Below, one piece after another: positions 24,827-31,260 of a stretch of DNA of 64,000 nt. Made by a program: the position numbers and the translations under genes. The stretch is from a virus: the UHGV virus genome UHGV-0371537. One strand, given 5' to 3'. A model generated the notes under the pieces. That model did not search any database and had not been told where the DNA came from. It was given only the letters and a program-made list of their open reading frames with translations. How positions within the stretch are numbered: position 1 is the first letter of the stretch; the number at the start of each line of letters is the position of its first letter.

Positions 24827-25681
24827 ATGTTTCGTTTGAAATTGAACGACCAAGATGTGTTCTATAAGCACTTCACCTTCCCAGGTGGTGAGGAACATAT
24901 CAAGATCCAAAAGGCTGGAATCCCTATCGGCCACGTCCAGAACGTGGTGATTGATGCTCACATCAAATCCTCTGCTGACTTCGTTGAGCTGGCACTGCTG
25001 GTTAACGCTGTTCGTGGCCTGGGTAACGTGGACCGTCTGACGGCATTCCATGCATATATCCCGTACTTCCCATATGCGCGTCAGGATCGTCATTGTGACT
25101 TTGGTGAGCCTCTGTCCGTGAAGTGGGCGGCTGAGTTCATCAACAGCATGAACTTTGACCGCGTGGCGATCAAAGACCCTCATAGCCATGTCGTGTCTTC
25201 TCTGATCAACAACGTCCATGTGGTCCCGCAAGATTACATCGTGCGTCAATATCTGGGCTGGTTCATTCGCGGCAACAATGCTGTGCTGGTAGCCCCTGAC
25301 GGCGGCGCGGCGAAGAAGACCGAAGCCCTCAGCCTGTCATTGGACGGCGTTCCTGTTGTCTACGGACACAAGAACCGTGACACCAAGACTGGTGAGATCA
25401 TTGGGGTGAGTATTACAAACCCTGAACTGATCAAAGACCGCTATCTGGTTGTGGTTGATGATATCTGCGACGGTGGGCGCACGTTTGTTGAGCTGGGCAA
25501 AGAGCTTCAGAAGCACGAGCCTAAGCACATGACGCTCTTCGTCACCCATGGCATCTTCAGCAAAGGTCTCTCTGTTTTCGACGGGATCTATGATGCTGTG
25601 TATGCCGACACTGTCTGGTGGGAGAACATCACCGCCGACGGTCTTCCTTTCAAAACTGAAAATACAGGACGTGTAAAATGA
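24827..25681 (+). CDS. ribose-phosphate pyrophosphokinase (Prs) homolog; candidate ADP-ribose pyrophosphate synthetase (Adps) of an NAD+ reconstitution pathway
   Basis: IPYFPYARQDR and VVVDDICDGGRTF match Prs motifs (E. coli IPYFGYARQDRR, VLVDDMIDTGGTL); 4-nt overlap with downstream NAMPT-like gene. Confidence 0.8.
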   Translation: MFRLKLNDQDVFYKHFTFPGGEEHIKIQKAGIPIGHVQNVVIDAHIKSSADFVELALLVNAVRGLGNVDRLTAFHAYIPYFPYARQDRHCDFGEPLSVKWAAEFINSMNFDRVAIKDPHSHVVSSLINNVHVVPQDYIVRQYLGWFIRGNNAVLVAPDGGAAKKTEALSLSLDGVPVVYGHKNRDTKTGEIIGVSITNPELIKDRYLVVVDDICDGGRTFVELGKELQKHEPKHMTLFVTHGIFSKGLSVFDGIYDAVYADTVWWENITADGLPFKTENTGRVK

Positions 25682-27342
25682 GCATGCGCCACTTAGATCC
25701 GATCCATGCAATCGACTTCTACAAATCAGGGCACATCTATCAGTTCCCTGAAGGCAGCGAGCTGGTGTTCTCCAACGGAACTCCGCGCTCCAACAAACTG
25801 TTCAACTCTCACCTGCCGAAGAACGGCGTGGTGGTCTGGGGCATCCAGGGCTTCATGACTTGGTTCCATGAACTGTTTGACGAAGCATTCTTCCAGCGCC
25901 CGAAGGCCAAGGTGTTGAAGAAGTATGCCCGTCGCATGAACAAAGTCCTGGGTCCAGGTCGTGTTGGTACAGAGCATATTGAAGCCCTGCATGACCTCGG
26001 CTACCTGCCTATCGAAGTCCGTGCGCTGCCCGAAGGCACCATGTGTCCGTATGGCGTTCCGGTGTATGTGATGTTCAACACCTTGCCGGAGTTCTACTGG
26101 CTGACCAACTATCTGGAGACTGTGTTCAGCTCTGAGATCTGGAAGCCGATGACGAACGCCACCATCGCCCTGCATTACAAGGCACTGATGGTGAAAGCCG
26201 CTATCGCTACAGGTGTGTCGCCGGACCATTGGTTCATCGACTACCAAGGCCACGACTTCTCCTTCCGTGGCATGAGCGGGTGGCATGACGCGGCGTCTTC
26301 CGGTTCCGGCCATTTGGTATTCTTCAAAGGCACCGATACCAACCCTGCCCTGGACTTCGTAGAAGAGTATTATGGCGCAGACATCGACGAAGACTATGTC
26401 GTTGCTGGTTCTGTTGCGGCTACCGAACACGCCGTGATGTGTATGGGCACGAAGGATGGTGAATTCGAAACCTTCCGCCGCCTGGTGCAGGACGTGTATC
26501 CTGATGGCATCGTCAGTATCGTATCTGATGCATGGGATTACTGGCAGGTCATCGACGACTATCTCCCTCGCCTGAAAGACATTATCATGGCGCGTAACGG
26601 TAAAGTCGTGATCCGCCCCGACTCGGGCGACCCAGTACACATCGTTGGCGGCTACCGCATCGAGGGGTTCAAAGACCGCGCCACGCTGAACATCAGCGGC
26701 GTGTCTAGCAGCACCGAAGTCATTCACATCGAAGAGACGAACACCTATCACCTGATCACAGGCGAAGGCACGATCAATTCTCTGATGGCAGACGACCGTA
26801 ATATCATCAGCCGTTCTGAAGCAGTCGGCTCTATCCAGCGCCTGTGGGAGATCTTTGGCGGTACTCAAACTGAGACTGGTCACTTCCTTTTGGATGATCA
26901 CATCGGTCTGATCTACGGCGACTCCATCACCCTGGCACGTGAAGACCAGATCTTTAGCCGTCTGGCTGGCCGGAACTTCGCTTCCATCAACGTGGTGTTC
27001 GGTATCGGTTCCTACACCTACCAGATGAACACCCGTGACAGTACTGGCACGGCAGTGAAAGCCACGGCTGGTAAAGTGAACGGCGAATTCCGTGAGATCT
27101 TCAAAGAGCCGAAGACCGACAAAGGCGGGACTAAAAAGTCTGCACGTGGTTTCCTTAAAGTCATTAAAGACTCTCAGGGTAAACTAGTGTTGGTTGACGG
27201 TATCACCTTTGATCAGGTACAAGACGCCGACAACCAGCACCAACTGGTGTATCGTGATGGTAAGTTCTTCAACACTCAGACTCTGGAAGATGCGCGTGTT
27301 CGTGCTGCTCCTCTGGTGGCGGAACTGGCCTCACAAATCTGA
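25678..27342 (+). CDS. nicotinamide phosphoribosyltransferase (NAMPT) homolog; candidate nicotinamide ADP-ribose transferase (Namat)
   Basis: 554 aa; N-terminal AIDFYKSGHIYQF resembles the NAMPT DSYK region; family call from memory; no NMNAT (HxGH) gene seen nearby. Confidence 0.75.
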   Translation: MSMRHLDPIHAIDFYKSGHIYQFPEGSELVFSNGTPRSNKLFNSHLPKNGVVVWGIQGFMTWFHELFDEAFFQRPKAKVLKKYARRMNKVLGPGRVGTEHIEALHDLGYLPIEVRALPEGTMCPYGVPVYVMFNTLPEFYWLTNYLETVFSSEIWKPMTNATIALHYKALMVKAAIATGVSPDHWFIDYQGHDFSFRGMSGWHDAASSGSGHLVFFKGTDTNPALDFVEEYYGADIDEDYVVAGSVAATEHAVMCMGTKDGEFETFRRLVQDVYPDGIVSIVSDAWDYWQVIDDYLPRLKDIIMARNGKVVIRPDSGDPVHIVGGYRIEGFKDRATLNISGVSSSTEVIHIEETNTYHLITGEGTINSLMADDRNIISRSEAVGSIQRLWEIFGGTQTETGHFLLDDHIGLIYGDSITLAREDQIFSRLAGRNFASINVVFGIGSYTYQMNTRDSTGTAVKATAGKVNGEFREIFKEPKTDKGGTKKSARGFLKVIKDSQGKLVLVDGITFDQVQDADNQHQLVYRDGKFFNTQTLEDARVRAAPLVAELASQI

Positions 27343-27383: not shown

Positions 27384-27554
27384 ATGTCCAAACCATTCAA
27401 AAATGCGGGTGTCGACAACCTCGACCGCCGCTTTAGCCCATCGGAAACGCTGATGAGTCAGATTGAACTCAATCGCGATTTCCTGGAACATATGCTGGTC
27501 AAGCCGGAAGGTGAGGCCGAAGACAACCCTGAAGAAGGCAATAACGATGATTGA
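27384..27554 (+). CDS. small acidic protein overlapping the vWA gene start
   Basis: 56-aa ORF MSKPFKNAGV...EEGNNDD; GAGG RBS; stop overlaps vWA start (ATGATTGA); not in ORF track. Confidence 0.35.
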   Translation: MSKPFKNAGVDNLDRRFSPSETLMSQIELNRDFLEHMLVKPEGEAEDNPEEGNNDD

Positions 27555-29808
27555 ATCCCTGGAGTTTAAGAATGCGGTTTCGACTGTTGCTCCGTCCAAC
27601 CATGTAATCGTTGTGGACATCTCTTATTCGATGTACCGTGCGCTCCCTGAAGTCCGTAAGCACCTGAAGGAGAACCTGCCTTCCCTGGTGAAACCGGAAG
27701 ACACTGTGAGCCTCCTATACTTCTCATCCCGTGGCGACTTTGGTACTGTGTTCTCTGGTCGCCAGATCAGTGTTGCGTCTGATCTGAGCGAGCTGAACAA
27801 ACTGATTGATCGCTTCCTGCAACCATCCGGCTGTACTGGTTTTGTTGAACCTCTGGGTCTGGCGGTAGATACTGCGCGCAGTCTGAAGAAACCCGGCTAT
27901 GTCAACAACCTGGCATTCATGACCGATGGTTATGACAACTGCTGGCGCTCCAATGAGATCCTGGCCGTTGCCGAAACCTTGCCATTCGTCTTTGATAACA
28001 TCACTTTCATCGAATACGGCTGGTACTGTAACCGCGAACTGCTGGCTCAGATGTCTGAGCGTTCCGGCGCGACTCACGTGTTCGCCGAAGGCCAGACTGA
28101 ATATCAGACTGAGCTGGAAAACGTGTTGAAGTCCTCGGTGCCGAAGGTTCGTGTTGACGTTCCTCTGGTGTACACTCACGCCATTTATGTCGAAAACGGC
28201 GTAGCAACCGTGCTGGCGGTGCAAGCCGAAGCAAGAATGGATTTCCAGATTGGCGATGAGTCCGTAAAACGGAAAGTGATTGAAGTAGGCCACGTGAGCA
28301 TCCCTGAGAGCGTCACGAAGCTGTGGGTTGTCAATCCTAACATGATCGACCAGCTTGATGCGCTGGCGGACATCCAGGCGGCATACGTGCTGGCGTTCTA
28401 CGGCGTACACATCATGGACGCAGACCTGGTGTGGGCTGCACTGAAGAAAACGGGCGACGTTCGCTTCATCAAACAGTACAGCAACTGCTTCACCAAGCAG
28501 GACTACTCCAACATCAAAGTTGATCTGACCCAGGCCATCGTTGATGACCAGCTGCGCGGCGTTGATGGTATCGATTACAATATGGTCCCGGCTGAAGATG
28601 CCACGACCGTGGTTGATGTGCTGACGTACCTGGCCGAAGCTGGCGTGTCTGTTGCCACCAAGCACCCGATGTTCTCCTACAAGAGTATCGGTCGCGGTAC
28701 TGTACAGAAAGCCGACGACACCGAAGACAAACTGGCCGAAGAAATCGCGAACGCCCAGTCCAAAGAAGAGCGCAAAGCCCTGGCTCTCAAGCTGGCCGAG
28801 CACGAAGAGTGGACGCCGTCGTTTGAACCTGCCAATGATCTGGGTGTGGTTCCAATCAGCGACCTGGTCTATAACTCCGAGCGCCCGAACATCAGTGTGC
28901 GGACAGTGCAGCATGGTACTGTTGCAGTTCCTGAGTTCGCGCAGAAGAAGTACGGCCTGCCTGAAGAACTTGACACCTTCCAGTGGCGCAATTACACCAT
29001 CGTCAAAGATGGTATCATCAACGTGAAGACTCTACCGTTTAGACATACCGAATCACCAGTCCGGGGTGCTGAGGTTGTGCAAAAGCTGATCGAGATGGGC
29101 GTTCACGTGTTTGGTGGTCCAGAAGTGTTCATCTTGAACCTGGAAAGCGTACCGCTGGTCAACCGTGCGATGGTCAAGAACATCAGTGCTGCTCAGTTCT
29201 TTGCGGACAATGTCCGCCTGGAAGCCCTGAAAGGCAAGCAGAAGGTGCTGAAGTTCTATCGCGACGCTCTGGTTGGTAAAGGCAATGCCAAAGGTCTGGC
29301 TATTCAGTACGGCGCTGAGGCCGCAGAATACCTGTCTGGTGTTGGCATTCGCGATTACGGCTTCTCGCCGAAGACTGAGACCAAGGAGTCTACCGACTTC
29401 TACATGAGCCGTGAGCTGAACGTTAAGATCGCTGGCGCTTCTTCCCTGCCGAGCATCGCAGCGGTACAGAAGAAGATTGCCGACAAAAAGACTCTCAATG
29501 CGGGTGATATGTTCATCGCCAATGCCCTGAAAGAGTACGATGCATTCGTGAAGTCCCCGGCGATCACTGCCGTGCCTGAAGCCGTACAGAAACAGCTGAT
29601 CGAAAACTGGATCGACGCTGCTGCCAAGGCGGCCATCACTGAAGTCCGCGCTCTGAACAAGACGCTGTCTAAAGTGGTTTATGGTATCGTTGCTGGCCAC
29701 GGCTGGTTCACCGACCTCGACCTGGAAGAGTCCACCATGGAAGTTGAAGTGGATGGCGTGAAGTACAAGGTCACTGCCGAACTGGCAGAGAAAGAGATCA
29801 AAATCTAA
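27547..29808 (+). CDS. von Willebrand factor A (vWA) domain protein, 753 aa
   Basis: MIDAS-like HVIVVDISYSMY (DxSxS) with downstream T and MTDGYDN; start moved to ATG 27547 (GAAGAAGG RBS); rest unassigned. Confidence 0.65.
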   Translation: MIESLEFKNAVSTVAPSNHVIVVDISYSMYRALPEVRKHLKENLPSLVKPEDTVSLLYFSSRGDFGTVFSGRQISVASDLSELNKLIDRFLQPSGCTGFVEPLGLAVDTARSLKKPGYVNNLAFMTDGYDNCWRSNEILAVAETLPFVFDNITFIEYGWYCNRELLAQMSERSGATHVFAEGQTEYQTELENVLKSSVPKVRVDVPLVYTHAIYVENGVATVLAVQAEARMDFQIGDESVKRKVIEVGHVSIPESVTKLWVVNPNMIDQLDALADIQAAYVLAFYGVHIMDADLVWAALKKTGDVRFIKQYSNCFTKQDYSNIKVDLTQAIVDDQLRGVDGIDYNMVPAEDATTVVDVLTYLAEAGVSVATKHPMFSYKSIGRGTVQKADDTEDKLAEEIANAQSKEERKALALKLAEHEEWTPSFEPANDLGVVPISDLVYNSERPNISVRTVQHGTVAVPEFAQKKYGLPEELDTFQWRNYTIVKDGIINVKTLPFRHTESPVRGAEVVQKLIEMGVHVFGGPEVFILNLESVPLVNRAMVKNISAAQFFADNVRLEALKGKQKVLKFYRDALVGKGNAKGLAIQYGAEAAEYLSGVGIRDYGFSPKTETKESTDFYMSRELNVKIAGASSLPSIAAVQKKIADKKTLNAGDMFIANALKEYDAFVKSPAITAVPEAVQKQLIENWIDAAAKAAITEVRALNKTLSKVVYGIVAGHGWFTDLDLEESTMEVEVDGVKYKVTAELAEKEIKI

Positions 29809-29815
29809 TCCAACA

Positions 29816-29839
29816 GGCGGGGCAACCCCGCCTTTCTTT
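29816..29839 (+). terminator. rho-independent terminator after vWA gene
   Basis: GGCGGGG-CAA-CCCCGCC then TTTCTTT. Confidence 0.7.
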
Positions 29840-29851
29840 GGGAGAAGTAAC

Positions 29852-30175
29852 ATGAGCGGTAAACCAACATATGTTGAGGTAATGCGCCACCTGGCCCGGT
29901 ACGCCACCGATAATCTGAATATGGATCTGTGGCGTGACGATGACAAGCGCAAACTGCTGGATGATGTGGCGGCTCAAAACGAGGATGCCCTGGACAAGCT
30001 GGCTGGCCTCCGCACCAAGAAAGACCTCGGCGGCGACGAACTCGATGCCATAGAAATCGTAATGGATCTCGAAGAAGAGTTTCAGGTCGAAATCGACGAC
30101 GGTTGGCTGGGTAGTAAAGGCGATGACCCGACCATGGGTGAACTCGCTGAACTCGTGGTCGCCCTGCGCAAATAA
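29852..30175 (+). CDS. acyl carrier protein-like protein with acceptor Ser replaced by Glu
   Basis: DLGGDELDAIEIVMDLEEEFQVEI vs E. coli AcpP [24 protein letters not shown]; the phosphopantetheine-accepting S of DSL is E here. Confidence 0.7.
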   Translation: MSGKPTYVEVMRHLARYATDNLNMDLWRDDDKRKLLDDVAAQNEDALDKLAGLRTKKDLGGDELDAIEIVMDLEEEFQVEIDDGWLGSKGDDPTMGELAELVVALRK

Positions 30176-30181
30176 CAGAAG

Positions 30182-30207
30182 TCCCCAACAAACGTTGGGG
30201 ATTTTTA
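30182..30207 (+). terminator. rho-independent terminator after ACP-like gene
   Basis: TCCCCAAC-AAAC-GTTGGGGA then TTTTT. Confidence 0.7.
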
Positions 30208-30297: not shown

Positions 30298-30537
30298 ATG
30301 AAGAACAAAATGGTCGAAACTTCAGTAGAGATTGATCGCAATTGGGGCTTGCTGCGCGCAAAGGGGTTCCGTCGTGTGTATGCGACCAAAGAAGTCTACG
30401 CACAGCGCCGTGACGTTATTATCAGTAAGAAGGGTAAAGAGTGGGTTGCTGAAGAAGTCGATGTTGAGACTGGCGTCGTCGGCAAGATAAAGGCCAAATC
30501 TGCAATTCTCTTCGCTCTTCTGAAGCATATCAGTTAA
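30298..30537 (+). CDS. hypothetical small basic protein
   Basis: 79 aa behind TTTACT-N17-TATTAT promoter and GATTATATC-ATG context. Confidence 0.45.
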   Translation: MKNKMVETSVEIDRNWGLLRAKGFRRVYATKEVYAQRRDVIISKKGKEWVAEEVDVETGVVGKIKAKSAILFALLKHIS

Positions 30538-30597
30538 TTCTATAAACCCACGGCGGGGTATGTTTACTCCGCCTATTTGACATCAAGAGACTATATC

Positions 30598-30975
30598 ATG
30601 AAAAAGTTAATCCTCGCTGTTGCTATGCTGGGCGCTTCCTTTGCTGCTGTTTCCGCTCCTACTGTCATCACCGGAGTGTCTACCAACGGCGTTTATGCTT
30701 TCAAGGCGTATGGACAAGACCTCGTCCTGTATAAGAACGGGAAGATGATTGAGCGCTGTGTAGCGGACGGTGTAAACCGTGGGATCGACAATCAGGGCAG
30801 TCCGTTCATTCTGGACTTCTATGCCTGCTCCAACGGGACGAAGACCTTTGGTGTCAAGACCTTCGGCAACGTCGCCGACGGCGGTTGGGGGTTTATGGTT
30901 GAAACCCGCAATCGCCGCCCGGTCACGACTATTGAAGAAGAGTTCTTGATCTCTGTCGGGGGTGGTTCGTTATGA
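30598..30975 (+). CDS. secreted (periplasmic) protein with Sec signal peptide
   Basis: MKKLILAVAMLGASFAAVSA signal peptide; GAGACTATATC-ATG initiation context. Confidence 0.55.
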   Translation: MKKLILAVAMLGASFAAVSAPTVITGVSTNGVYAFKAYGQDLVLYKNGKMIERCVADGVNRGIDNQGSPFILDFYACSNGTKTFGVKTFGNVADGGWGFMVETRNRRPVTTIEEEFLISVGGGSL

Positions 30976-31259
30976 AAAAGGACGAAGAACTCGCTCTATT
31001 CTCTATGGTGCGCAGTGAAGTCGAAACAGGTTTCAGGGAGACAGACGCGATTATTGACTTAATGAAAGTCAAAAACGATATCGACAATGAACGGTACAAA
31101 ACAGCGCTCTACGGCCTTCTCGAGTTCATTCTGCGCAAGGCCGATCTTGGTCCTGTCGACACCCTTGATGATCTGACCAAGCTGTTGAACACGGGCGGGG
31201 AAACTTTCGACACCGCTCGTATCCTGATTGACGGTGGACCTGAAGAAGACGAGGTGTGA
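30972..31259 (+). CDS. hypothetical acidic protein
   Basis: 95 aa, ATGA overlap with upstream gene. Confidence 0.45.
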   Translation: MKKDEELALFSMVRSEVETGFRETDAIIDLMKVKNDIDNERYKTALYGLLEFILRKADLGPVDTLDDLTKLLNTGGETFDTARILIDGGPEEDEV

Positions 31260-31260
31260 T

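Follow-up and report, generated by a model that had tools for sequence, protein, structure and literature searches.

What is an acyl carrier protein (ACP) for once it has lost the serine to which its prosthetic group is attached? This question is raised by a small gene in UHGV virus genome UHGV-0371537, from which we analyzed a stretch of 64,000 nucleotides (the window, within which all positions are counted). The open reading frame at 29852-30175 on the + strand has an ATG start, a TAA stop and 107 codons for a protein of 107 amino acids, exactly as quoted in an initial annotation made from the sequence alone, and is preceded by a Shine-Dalgarno sequence, GGGAG, at 29840-29844. That annotation described an ACP-like protein with glutamate in place of the phosphopantetheine-acceptor serine and envisaged it as a decoy for host ACP partners. 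The gene family and its ACP annotation were already known; what appears to be new is the loss of the serine and its consistent replacement by an acidic residue. Our literature searches returned no paper on the serine loss, the acidic replacement or the function of this gene, only annotation tables and one trace identification by mass spectrometry (MS), and searches on phage serine-less ACPs, ACP mimics, AcpP in anti-phage defense and Ackermannviridae transcriptomes yielded nothing with a direct bearing on it.

The acceptor position and its conservation

The gene has the following features, numbered against Escherichia coli AcpP where a counterpart exists:

29852-30175, + strand: coding sequence of an ACP-fold protein lacking the acceptor serine (open reading frame; PHROG 4154, 'acyl carrier protein' in Ackermannviridae; PF00550; ACP fold; ratio of nonsynonymous to synonymous substitution rates, dN/dS)
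30038-30040, + strand: codon 63, GAA, encoding Glu63 at the position of Ser36, the phosphopantetheine acceptor of AcpP (alignment register, ortholog codons)
30023-30100, + strand: residues 58-83, with the DLGGDELD motif, helix II (the 'recognition helix') and the start of helix III, the most conserved block
29852-29923, + strand: residues 1-24, a conserved extra N-terminal helix (helix 7-21 of the model) with no counterpart in canonical ACPs
30104-30133, + strand: residues 85-94, the family-specific loop W85-x-G87-x3-D91-D92-P93-T94

Sequence comparisons agree on how this protein aligns with bacterial ACPs. In BLASTP against AcpP, residues 57-83 match AcpP residues 31-57 without gaps (17 of 27 identical, E = 5e-9), which puts Glu63 opposite Ser36. 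A phmmer search of the Protein Data Bank (PDB) gave the same register with Bacillus subtilis ACP (the DLGGDELDAIEIV segment, E = 1.4e-5) and matched about 60 more ACP chains, and the Pfam model PF00550 scores 24.6 bits over residues 58-101, above its cut-off of 20.8. Both the helix II alignment and the serine-to-glutamate change in the DSL motif, which the initial annotation had read by eye, are borne out by these comparisons. Other models remain below threshold: PF14573 scores 27.5 against a cut-off of 32, TIGR00517 reaches 33.8 bits of the 70.45 that mark an AcpP equivalog, and seven other NCBIfam ACP models are likewise far under their cut-offs, with matches confined to residues ~54-83.

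A shifted alignment that rescues an acceptor serine, named in advance as a possible refutation, is ruled out. Residues 45-87 contain no serine, so realignment cannot bring one to the acceptor site, and neither serine nor threonine was found at or beside that position. The protein is a true ACP homolog with glutamate at the acceptor position. With glutamate or aspartate in place of the serine, the canonical site can accept neither the phosphopantetheine arm nor an acyl chain, and the earlier statement that the protein cannot carry a prosthetic group holds for that site, where the family has E or D and never S.

The predicted structure agrees with this homology. An AlphaFold2 model built from the family alignment (mean predicted local distance difference test score, pLDDT, 78.8; predicted template modeling score, pTM, 0.71) has six helices, at residues 7-21, 30-40, 44-51, 66-77, 83-88 and 95-105, and contains the predicted four-helix ACP fold. 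Foldseek searches of the PDB returned almost only ACPs and related carrier proteins, with target-normalized TM scores of 0.58-0.69 for the leading ACP matches, and an independent model from BFVD, that of the phage ViI ortholog, overlays it at TM 0.86-0.88. Because the alignment of short ACPs to the family profile begins only at position ~25, helix 7-21 is an N-terminal addition to the ACP bundle. Helix III of AcpP and the loop before helix IV are replaced by the W85-x-G87-x3-D91-D92-P93-T94 loop, and AcpP Phe28, a core and pocket residue, is Thr55 in the phage protein. The net charge is -13 over 107 residues, compared with -15 over the 77 amino acids of AcpP.

This gene is widespread among relatives of its phage. 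The window phage belongs to the Ackermannviridae (Vi01-like), with a 2-kb region ~91-93% identical to Dickeya Limestonevirus, Salmonella and Escherichia members, and the protein matches phrog_4154 over its whole length (E = 3.8e-56; residues 1-107 against profile positions 1-108 of 108). Using tblastn, we found homologs with query coverage of at least 80% in 271 records of phages that infect Salmonella, Klebsiella, Escherichia, Dickeya, Shigella, Serratia and Enterobacter. This is about the same number as the ~270 records with an Ackermannviridae-type gene (at least 60% identity) for a von Willebrand factor A (vWA)-type protein, and from this near equality we conclude that the ACP-like gene is an Ackermannviridae core gene, already widely annotated as ACP. 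That annotation now needs correction in ~270 Ackermannviridae genomes, many of them from candidates for phage therapy or biocontrol: the gene is neither an acyl carrier nor an auxiliary lipid-metabolism gene.

Among 37 full-length cluster representatives (90%-identity clusters), the acceptor motif reads LGGD-E-LD in 35 and LGGD-D-LD in two, with serine in none. DDL is found in the orthologs of Salmonella phage CRW-SP2 (37% identity) and Cba120. A profile search of 1.84 billion representative proteins added seven more full-length relatives (P0039-P0044 and P0046, ~35-40% identity), all of them with D-[E/D]-L. No family member with an acceptor serine was found among the 37 representatives, nine sequenced loci and seven remote relatives, which answers the proposal that conservation of the glutamate be checked across related phages. 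Codon 63 is GAA, GAC or GAT in nine orthologs, including the ~35-40% identical ones, and two substitutions are needed to reach any serine codon from these. Synonymous sites are saturated between genera, and codon 63 is nonetheless always acidic; pairwise dN/dS by the Nei-Gojobori method is 0.10-0.32 wherever synonymous divergence (dS) is measurable. Judged from these sequences, the gene is under purifying selection and the acceptor residue has evidently been acidic throughout the family's whole history.

Conservation is concentrated in particular parts of the protein. Column entropies over 27 diverse sequences average 1.18 bits for residues 1-24 (the N-terminal helix), 2.18 bits for residues 25-52 (the equivalent of ACP helix I and its loop) and 0.9 bits for residues 53-94 (the loop, helix II and the helix III region), and a set of 26 sequences shares at least 31 invariant columns. 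D62, L64, I67, E68, E74, D83, D91, P93 and Y7 are invariant in the 27 sequences and M71, E76, I81, W85 and G87 nearly so; in the N-terminal helix, Y7 is accompanied by the nearly invariant V10, L14, A18, N21 and L22. According to the BLASTP alignment, D62, L64, D65, I67 and E68 correspond to AcpP D35, L37, D38, V40 and E41, and M71, E74, E75, E76 and D83 to AcpP M44, E47, E48, E49 and D56. In AcpP, these residues form the face of the recognition helix that docks on the basic patches of partners, such as in the AcpS-ACP, FabA-AcpP and LpxA/D-ACP complexes. The partner-contact residues of helix II are thus kept, invariant or nearly so.

In two rare natural variants from metagenome contigs, P0038 (80 amino acids) and P0047 (54 amino acids), a deletion or frameshift disrupts the ACP core from about residue 36-56 on. 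Unless these are errors of assembly, they point to settings in which the gene can be dispensed with.

Candidate functions

Selection keeps the acidic face of helix II, a negative charge at the position of the holo-ACP phosphodiester, the N-terminal helix and the tryptophan loop, which makes a protein-binding module the most likely kind of function. Our leading, tentative candidate is a non-acylatable decoy or adaptor that would dock on an ACP-binding site, most likely that of a host client. With carrier function permanently lost, the protein would act through binding alone, docking as AcpP does onto the basic ACP-binding patch of a partner. The carboxylate of Glu63, or of Asp, would substitute for the phosphoserine phosphate of holo-ACP, and with no acyl group delivered the outcome would be a dead-end mimic or an adaptor. 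The most probable targets would be host AcpP clients that bind without need of the acyl chain, such as PlsB and MukB. The sequence and model data show homology, fold, serine loss, purifying selection and the conservation of helix II and of the acidic residue, whereas we infer ACP-site binding, phosphate mimicry and the identity of the partner.

Three precedents lend plausibility to such a mimic or adaptor. Apo-ACP strongly inhibits glycerol-3-phosphate acyltransferase and brings growth to a halt (review, PMC3896788), the ATPase of MukB is stimulated equally by apo- and holo-AcpP (PMC8602292), and in the mitochondrial ACP (mACP) of Plasmodium, Phe113 stands in the serine's place and forms part of the Isd11 interface (PMC8547962). 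One phage protein that targets MukBEF, T7 gp5.9, is already known (PMC7617805). Canonical ACP partners hold the phosphopantetheine phosphate by an arginine (PMC8547962), and, by analogy, a Glu or Asp at the acceptor site would keep such a contact.

Several points weigh against a host-directed decoy. The best PDB match of the phage protein is B. subtilis ACP and its TIGR00517 score falls far short (33.8 versus 70.45), so no special closeness to enterobacterial AcpP is apparent and nothing points to recent host mimicry. The altered helix III and loop and the conserved N-terminal helix would be needless in a generic decoy, and they make a dedicated, possibly phage-encoded, partner plausible. With AcpP present at ~100 µM (PMC8602292), the phage protein would have to be made in very large amounts to titrate all AcpP clients, yet its gene lies behind a terminator. 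Apo-ACP is reportedly not bound by SpoT (PMC3896788), so the clients listed in the initial annotation are not all realistic targets. Finally, Glu or Asp could be kept for helix capping or stability alone.

The decoy proposed in the initial annotation therefore survives in part. An acid that mimics the phosphate and engages a host ACP partner would fit the invariant recognition helix, the E/D-only acceptor position and the apo-ACP precedents, whereas general titration of partners is disfavored: the family-specific surfaces, that is, the N-terminal helix and the W85...DDPT loop, argue for one specific partner.

A bolder form of the idea, which we regard as somewhat doubtful, is a genetically locked 'pseudo-holo' ACP, in which the carboxylate would mimic the phosphodiester of holo-AcpP, and the recognition helix, together with the phage-specific N-terminal helix and tryptophan loop, would give high affinity for one host client (for example the MukB neck, PlsB, LpxA/LpxD or IscS), the client being switched off or hijacked during takeover. 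If this were so, viral mimics of host hubs would form a new class that recurs, because DEL and DNL ACP-like proteins also occur in unrelated phage contigs. AcpP is a highly connected hub: fatty-acid, phospholipid, lipid A, biotin and lipoate synthesis all draw on it, and it binds MukBEF, IscS and SpoT. A decoy acting on this network would be the first viral mimic of the AcpP hub, with the docking face kept and cargo impossible, and could provide a probe for the ACP interactions that are vulnerable during infection.

The foremost alternative concerns the gene immediately upstream:

27544-29808 (alternative start 27463), + strand: vWA-type protein of ~735-750 amino acids, phrog_2426, directly upstream of the ACP-like gene

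The metal-ion-dependent adhesion site (MIDAS) residues of this protein, D25-x-S27-x-S29, T98 and D128, are invariant in eight homologs, and it is a possible partner of the ACP-like protein. MIDAS sites accept an acidic ligand residue, for example Glu or Asp for integrin I-domains. The ACP-like protein could be a dedicated vWA partner, the two genes forming a module in which its fold is repurposed as a ligand whose exposed Glu or Asp, at the helix II tip, completes the coordination of the MIDAS metal; strict use of E or D is the pattern expected of a metal ligand. The vWA gene precedes the ACP-like gene in every locus examined, including those with ~35-40% identity: LIMEstone1, CRW-SP2, Cba120, 0507-KN2-1, IME250, Maynard and the metagenomic contigs L005 and L006, on which two of the seven remote relatives each follow a ~738-amino-acid vWA homolog. 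Both proteins also appear at trace level in one phage-lysate proteome (PMC10892097).

We nevertheless consider a dedicated vWA partnership unlikely. Ackermannviridae genomes are broadly syntenic (PMC10892097), so adjacency is weak evidence, and a conserved terminator separates the two genes. The vWA protein, 73-91% identical across Ackermannviridae, is 73-76% identical in the same genome pairs in which the ACP-like protein is ~35-40% identical. More than 200 phages, Straboviridae-type (of Klebsiella, Enterobacter and Cronobacter) and others, have a vWA homolog (47% identity in the Straboviridae type) with no ACP-like gene adjoining, and the idea that the vWA gene always travels with the ACP-like gene is rejected by the unrelated neighbors of these homologs. 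Invariance of the entire AcpP recognition helix would also be left unexplained. The vWA protein had no Pfam match at E ≤ 0.01 and no sequence relative in the PDB, and is annotated as 'confirmed structural protein' or 'minor tail protein' depending on the record.

It is quite improbable, in our view, that the acidic residue is only an N-cap or dipole stabilizer of helix II and that the protein acts through bulk negative charge, as a DNA or nucleic-acid mimic or an acidic chaperone, rather than by ACP docking. Asp is a good helix N-cap residue, and E and D predominate in other serine-less ACP-like domains, including exported ones, so a general stability rule is possible. The net charge of -13 over 107 residues also suits this explanation, and acidic T7 gp5.9 offers a precedent as a DNA mimic against RecBCD and MukBEF (PMC7617805). 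However, conservation in this family is motif-specific and not compositional, extending over the ACP recognition-helix positions and the hydrophobic L64, I67 and M71, and Ser, Thr and Asn, which are good N-caps too, never occur. Nor does E/D covary with the basic residues at -9 and -7, as expected of a salt-bridge staple. A salt bridge of E/D63 with R54 or K56 is unsupported, as Arg at -9 is equally common in serine-containing ACPs (30% versus 38%).

Continued carrier function through a non-canonical residue or chemistry is very hard to credit. Most records bear the annotation 'acyl carrier protein' and PF00550 scores above its gathering threshold, but there is no serine or threonine at or beside the acceptor position, residues 45-87 lack serine altogether, and all NCBIfam ACP models are far under cut-off. 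Nor was any enzyme that depends on a carrier found nearby. Pfam scans of ten neighboring proteins, covering the window's neighborhood rather than the rest of the genome, revealed no acyltransferase, ketosynthase, thioesterase or phosphopantetheinyl transferase (PPTase), in keeping with the initial annotation, and a tblastn search with E. coli AcpS found no homolog in any Ackermannviridae record (nine phage records matched, all of them others; Sfp-type enzymes were not searched).

The truncated P0038 (80 amino acids) and P0047 (54 amino acids) and the degraded NAD genes of some relatives might point to a functionless remnant of what was once a phage ACP gene, but gene decay is effectively refuted by the selection analysis, given a reading frame intact in 271 phage records, dN/dS of 0.10-0.32 with saturated synonymous sites, at least 31 invariant columns across 26 sequences and a peptide detected by MS (PMC10892097).

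Expression context and neighboring genes

Two further features flank the ACP-like gene:

29815-29840, + strand: terminator-like hairpin and T-rich tract between the vWA and ACP-like genes, its tail abutting the Shine-Dalgarno sequence
30182-30206, + strand: intrinsic terminator after the ACP-like gene, with an 8-bp core stem, a 4-nt loop and TTTTT (sequence, folding)

The initial annotation was right that the gene has its own terminators on both sides. The upstream hairpin, at 29815-29833, has 8 bp, seven of them GC, followed by the T-rich tract (-18.6 kcal/mol for 29809-29851), and the downstream hairpin, at 30182-30201 and followed by TTTTT, folds at -18.5 kcal/mol with a z of -5.8. The LIMEstone1 annotation has terminators at both equivalent sites and that of Maynard at the upstream site; in LIMEstone1, a putative early promoter lies directly after the downstream terminator. 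The minimum-free-energy fold of the intergenic RNA 29809-29851 includes an outer 5-bp stem that pairs UCCAA (29809-29813) with UUGGG (29838-29842). This predicted stem partly covers the Shine-Dalgarno sequence of the ACP-like gene and may dampen its translation.

The ACP-like gene is the final member of an early/middle-type run on the + strand that includes clamp loader subunits, regA, MazG, a Prs-like and NAMPT-like pair and the vWA protein. A search near it for a T4-type late promoter (TATAAATA) found none, and its context suggests expression from an early/middle block for DNA metabolism and host takeover. In a virion/lysate proteome of the Vi01-like phage Sajous1, the ACP-like and vWA proteins have one retrieval each, among many non-structural proteins (PMC10892097), which shows expression but does not demonstrate incorporation into the virion.

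One claim of the initial annotation failed. The gene had been placed just downstream of a nicotinamide adenine dinucleotide (NAD) cassette, but the 2.3-kb vWA gene (27463/27544-29808) intervenes. A linkage to the cassette is rejected as well: all that LIMEstone1 retains of nadV is a 333-nt remnant, and Cba120 lacks NAMPT beside the vWA gene, yet both keep the ACP-like gene. The Prs-like gene (24827-25681) matches PF00156 and PF13793 and scores 105 bits with TIGR01251, whose cut-off of 113 is not reached; the NAMPT-like gene (25678-27342) overlaps it by 4 nt and scores 471 bits with NF006629. We take this pair to resemble NARP1 (Adps and Namat), which reconstitutes NAD+ against NAD-depleting defense, rather than a phosphoribosyl pyrophosphate (PRPP) synthetase with NAMPT.

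On the other side, the window at 30537-31260 has no denV (endonuclease V), a gene that LIMEstone1-type Dickeya phages have two genes past the ACP-like gene (L001:9687-10600). In its place is a protein of 125-132 amino acids (30577/30598-30975, phrog_5474) with a signal-peptide-like N-terminus. A Mod-like RNA polymerase ADP-ribosyltransferase (PF26816) is encoded two to four genes past the ACP-like gene, in Kuttervirus as Cba120 orf140 (L008:4235-4741) and in a remote relative from a metagenome (L005:4029-4535). This neighbor supports the host-takeover character of the gene block.

Comparison with known systems

The obvious reference is AcpP itself (PF00550, TIGR00517), in which Ser36 is the acceptor. 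The phage protein has Glu or Asp there and has neither phosphopantetheine nor acyl cargo; as a member of PHROG 4154, it lacks the defining feature of a functional carrier. It is also ~30 residues longer, with its conserved extra N-terminal helix, has the W-x-G-x3-DDPT loop in place of helix III and the following loop, and is encoded by a lytic phage without fatty-acid synthesis (FAS) genes or an AcpS-type PPTase (Sfp-type enzymes were not searched). Apo-AcpP in E. coli offers the same logic as that proposed here: the unmodified protein binds clients, inhibiting PlsB (PMC3896788) and binding and activating MukB (PMC8602292). Those effects, however, come from the host's own under-modified protein, whereas the phage protein is locked in an unmodifiable state, would be a charge mimic and has extra conserved surfaces. 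With acidic DNA mimics of the Ocr/gp5.9 type, it shares a strong negative charge, as does every AcpP.

There is also a likeness with the mACP of Plasmodium falciparum (Ser to Phe) and other apicomplexan serine-less mACPs, which also combine an ACP fold with loss of the acceptor serine and retention of helix II acidic residues (PMC8547962). The Plasmodium protein works without phosphopantetheine as a protein-binding subunit, with the substituted residue in the interface (eLife 2021, PMC8547962). Unlike the phage protein, it is eukaryotic and organellar, with the LYR protein Isd11 as partner, and the two are not orthologous; its substitution is hydrophobic (Phe, Cys or Gly in mACPs) and accompanied by co-evolved loss of the partner arginine, whereas that of the phage protein keeps a negative charge. 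Other organellar ACP-like subunits (T. brucei mt-SAF32, Euglena NDUEG11, Tetrahymena ATPTT11 and a complex IV ACP-like protein) are far more diverged in sequence (7-16% identity), are eukaryotic and sit within known complexes as structural subunits.

Other phage ACP-like proteins, in PHROG 5934 and in metagenomes, are likewise small, stand-alone and encoded in early or replication regions with no partners from FAS, polyketide synthase or nonribosomal peptide synthetase systems, and some share the G-x3-DDP loop. In contrast to PHROG 4154, they have no N-terminal helix and no W85 and do not lie beside a vWA gene. Three of those retrieved by the profile search, P0049, P0050 and P0054, have Glu (DEL) at the acceptor and come from phage-like contigs with packed small genes, an HNH endonuclease, ThyX and a CxxCxxCC protein. 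The ACP-like protein of Vibrio phage 277E43-1 combines DNL with a C-terminal extension of ~95 amino acids. On unrelated phage or phage-like contigs, stand-alone serine-less ACP-like genes lie at L004:936-1223, L007:1825-2085, L015:7079-7375 and L017:2980-3513, three metagenomic ones reading DEL and that of the Vibrio phage DNL. Similar phage genes keep DSL, as in P0055 and Caudoviricetes sp. MW202777 and at L012:8001-8273 and L019:2489-2770. The acceptor serine seems to have been lost repeatedly in phage ACP-like proteins.

Among 180 aligned domains from the listed matches, the acceptor residue is S in 132, E in 24, D in 16 and another residue in six, counts that are biased toward E by the query profile; they suggest that a lost serine is usually replaced by an acidic residue. 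Many of the E- or D-bearing ACP-like proteins have lipoprotein-type signal peptides, and some have two or three tandem ACP-like domains. Metagenomic proteins with DEL or DDL include P0099, P0105, P0109, P0115, P0142, P0170, P0180, P0182, P0073, P0075 and P0048 (loci L020-L022), and those of the lipoprotein type are apparently exported serine-less ACP folds. Serine-less ACPs have been thought almost confined to apicomplexan mitochondria (PMC8547962); in our profile search, ACP folds with an acidic substitution turn up repeatedly, both in phages and in bacterial lipoproteins that are apparently exported.

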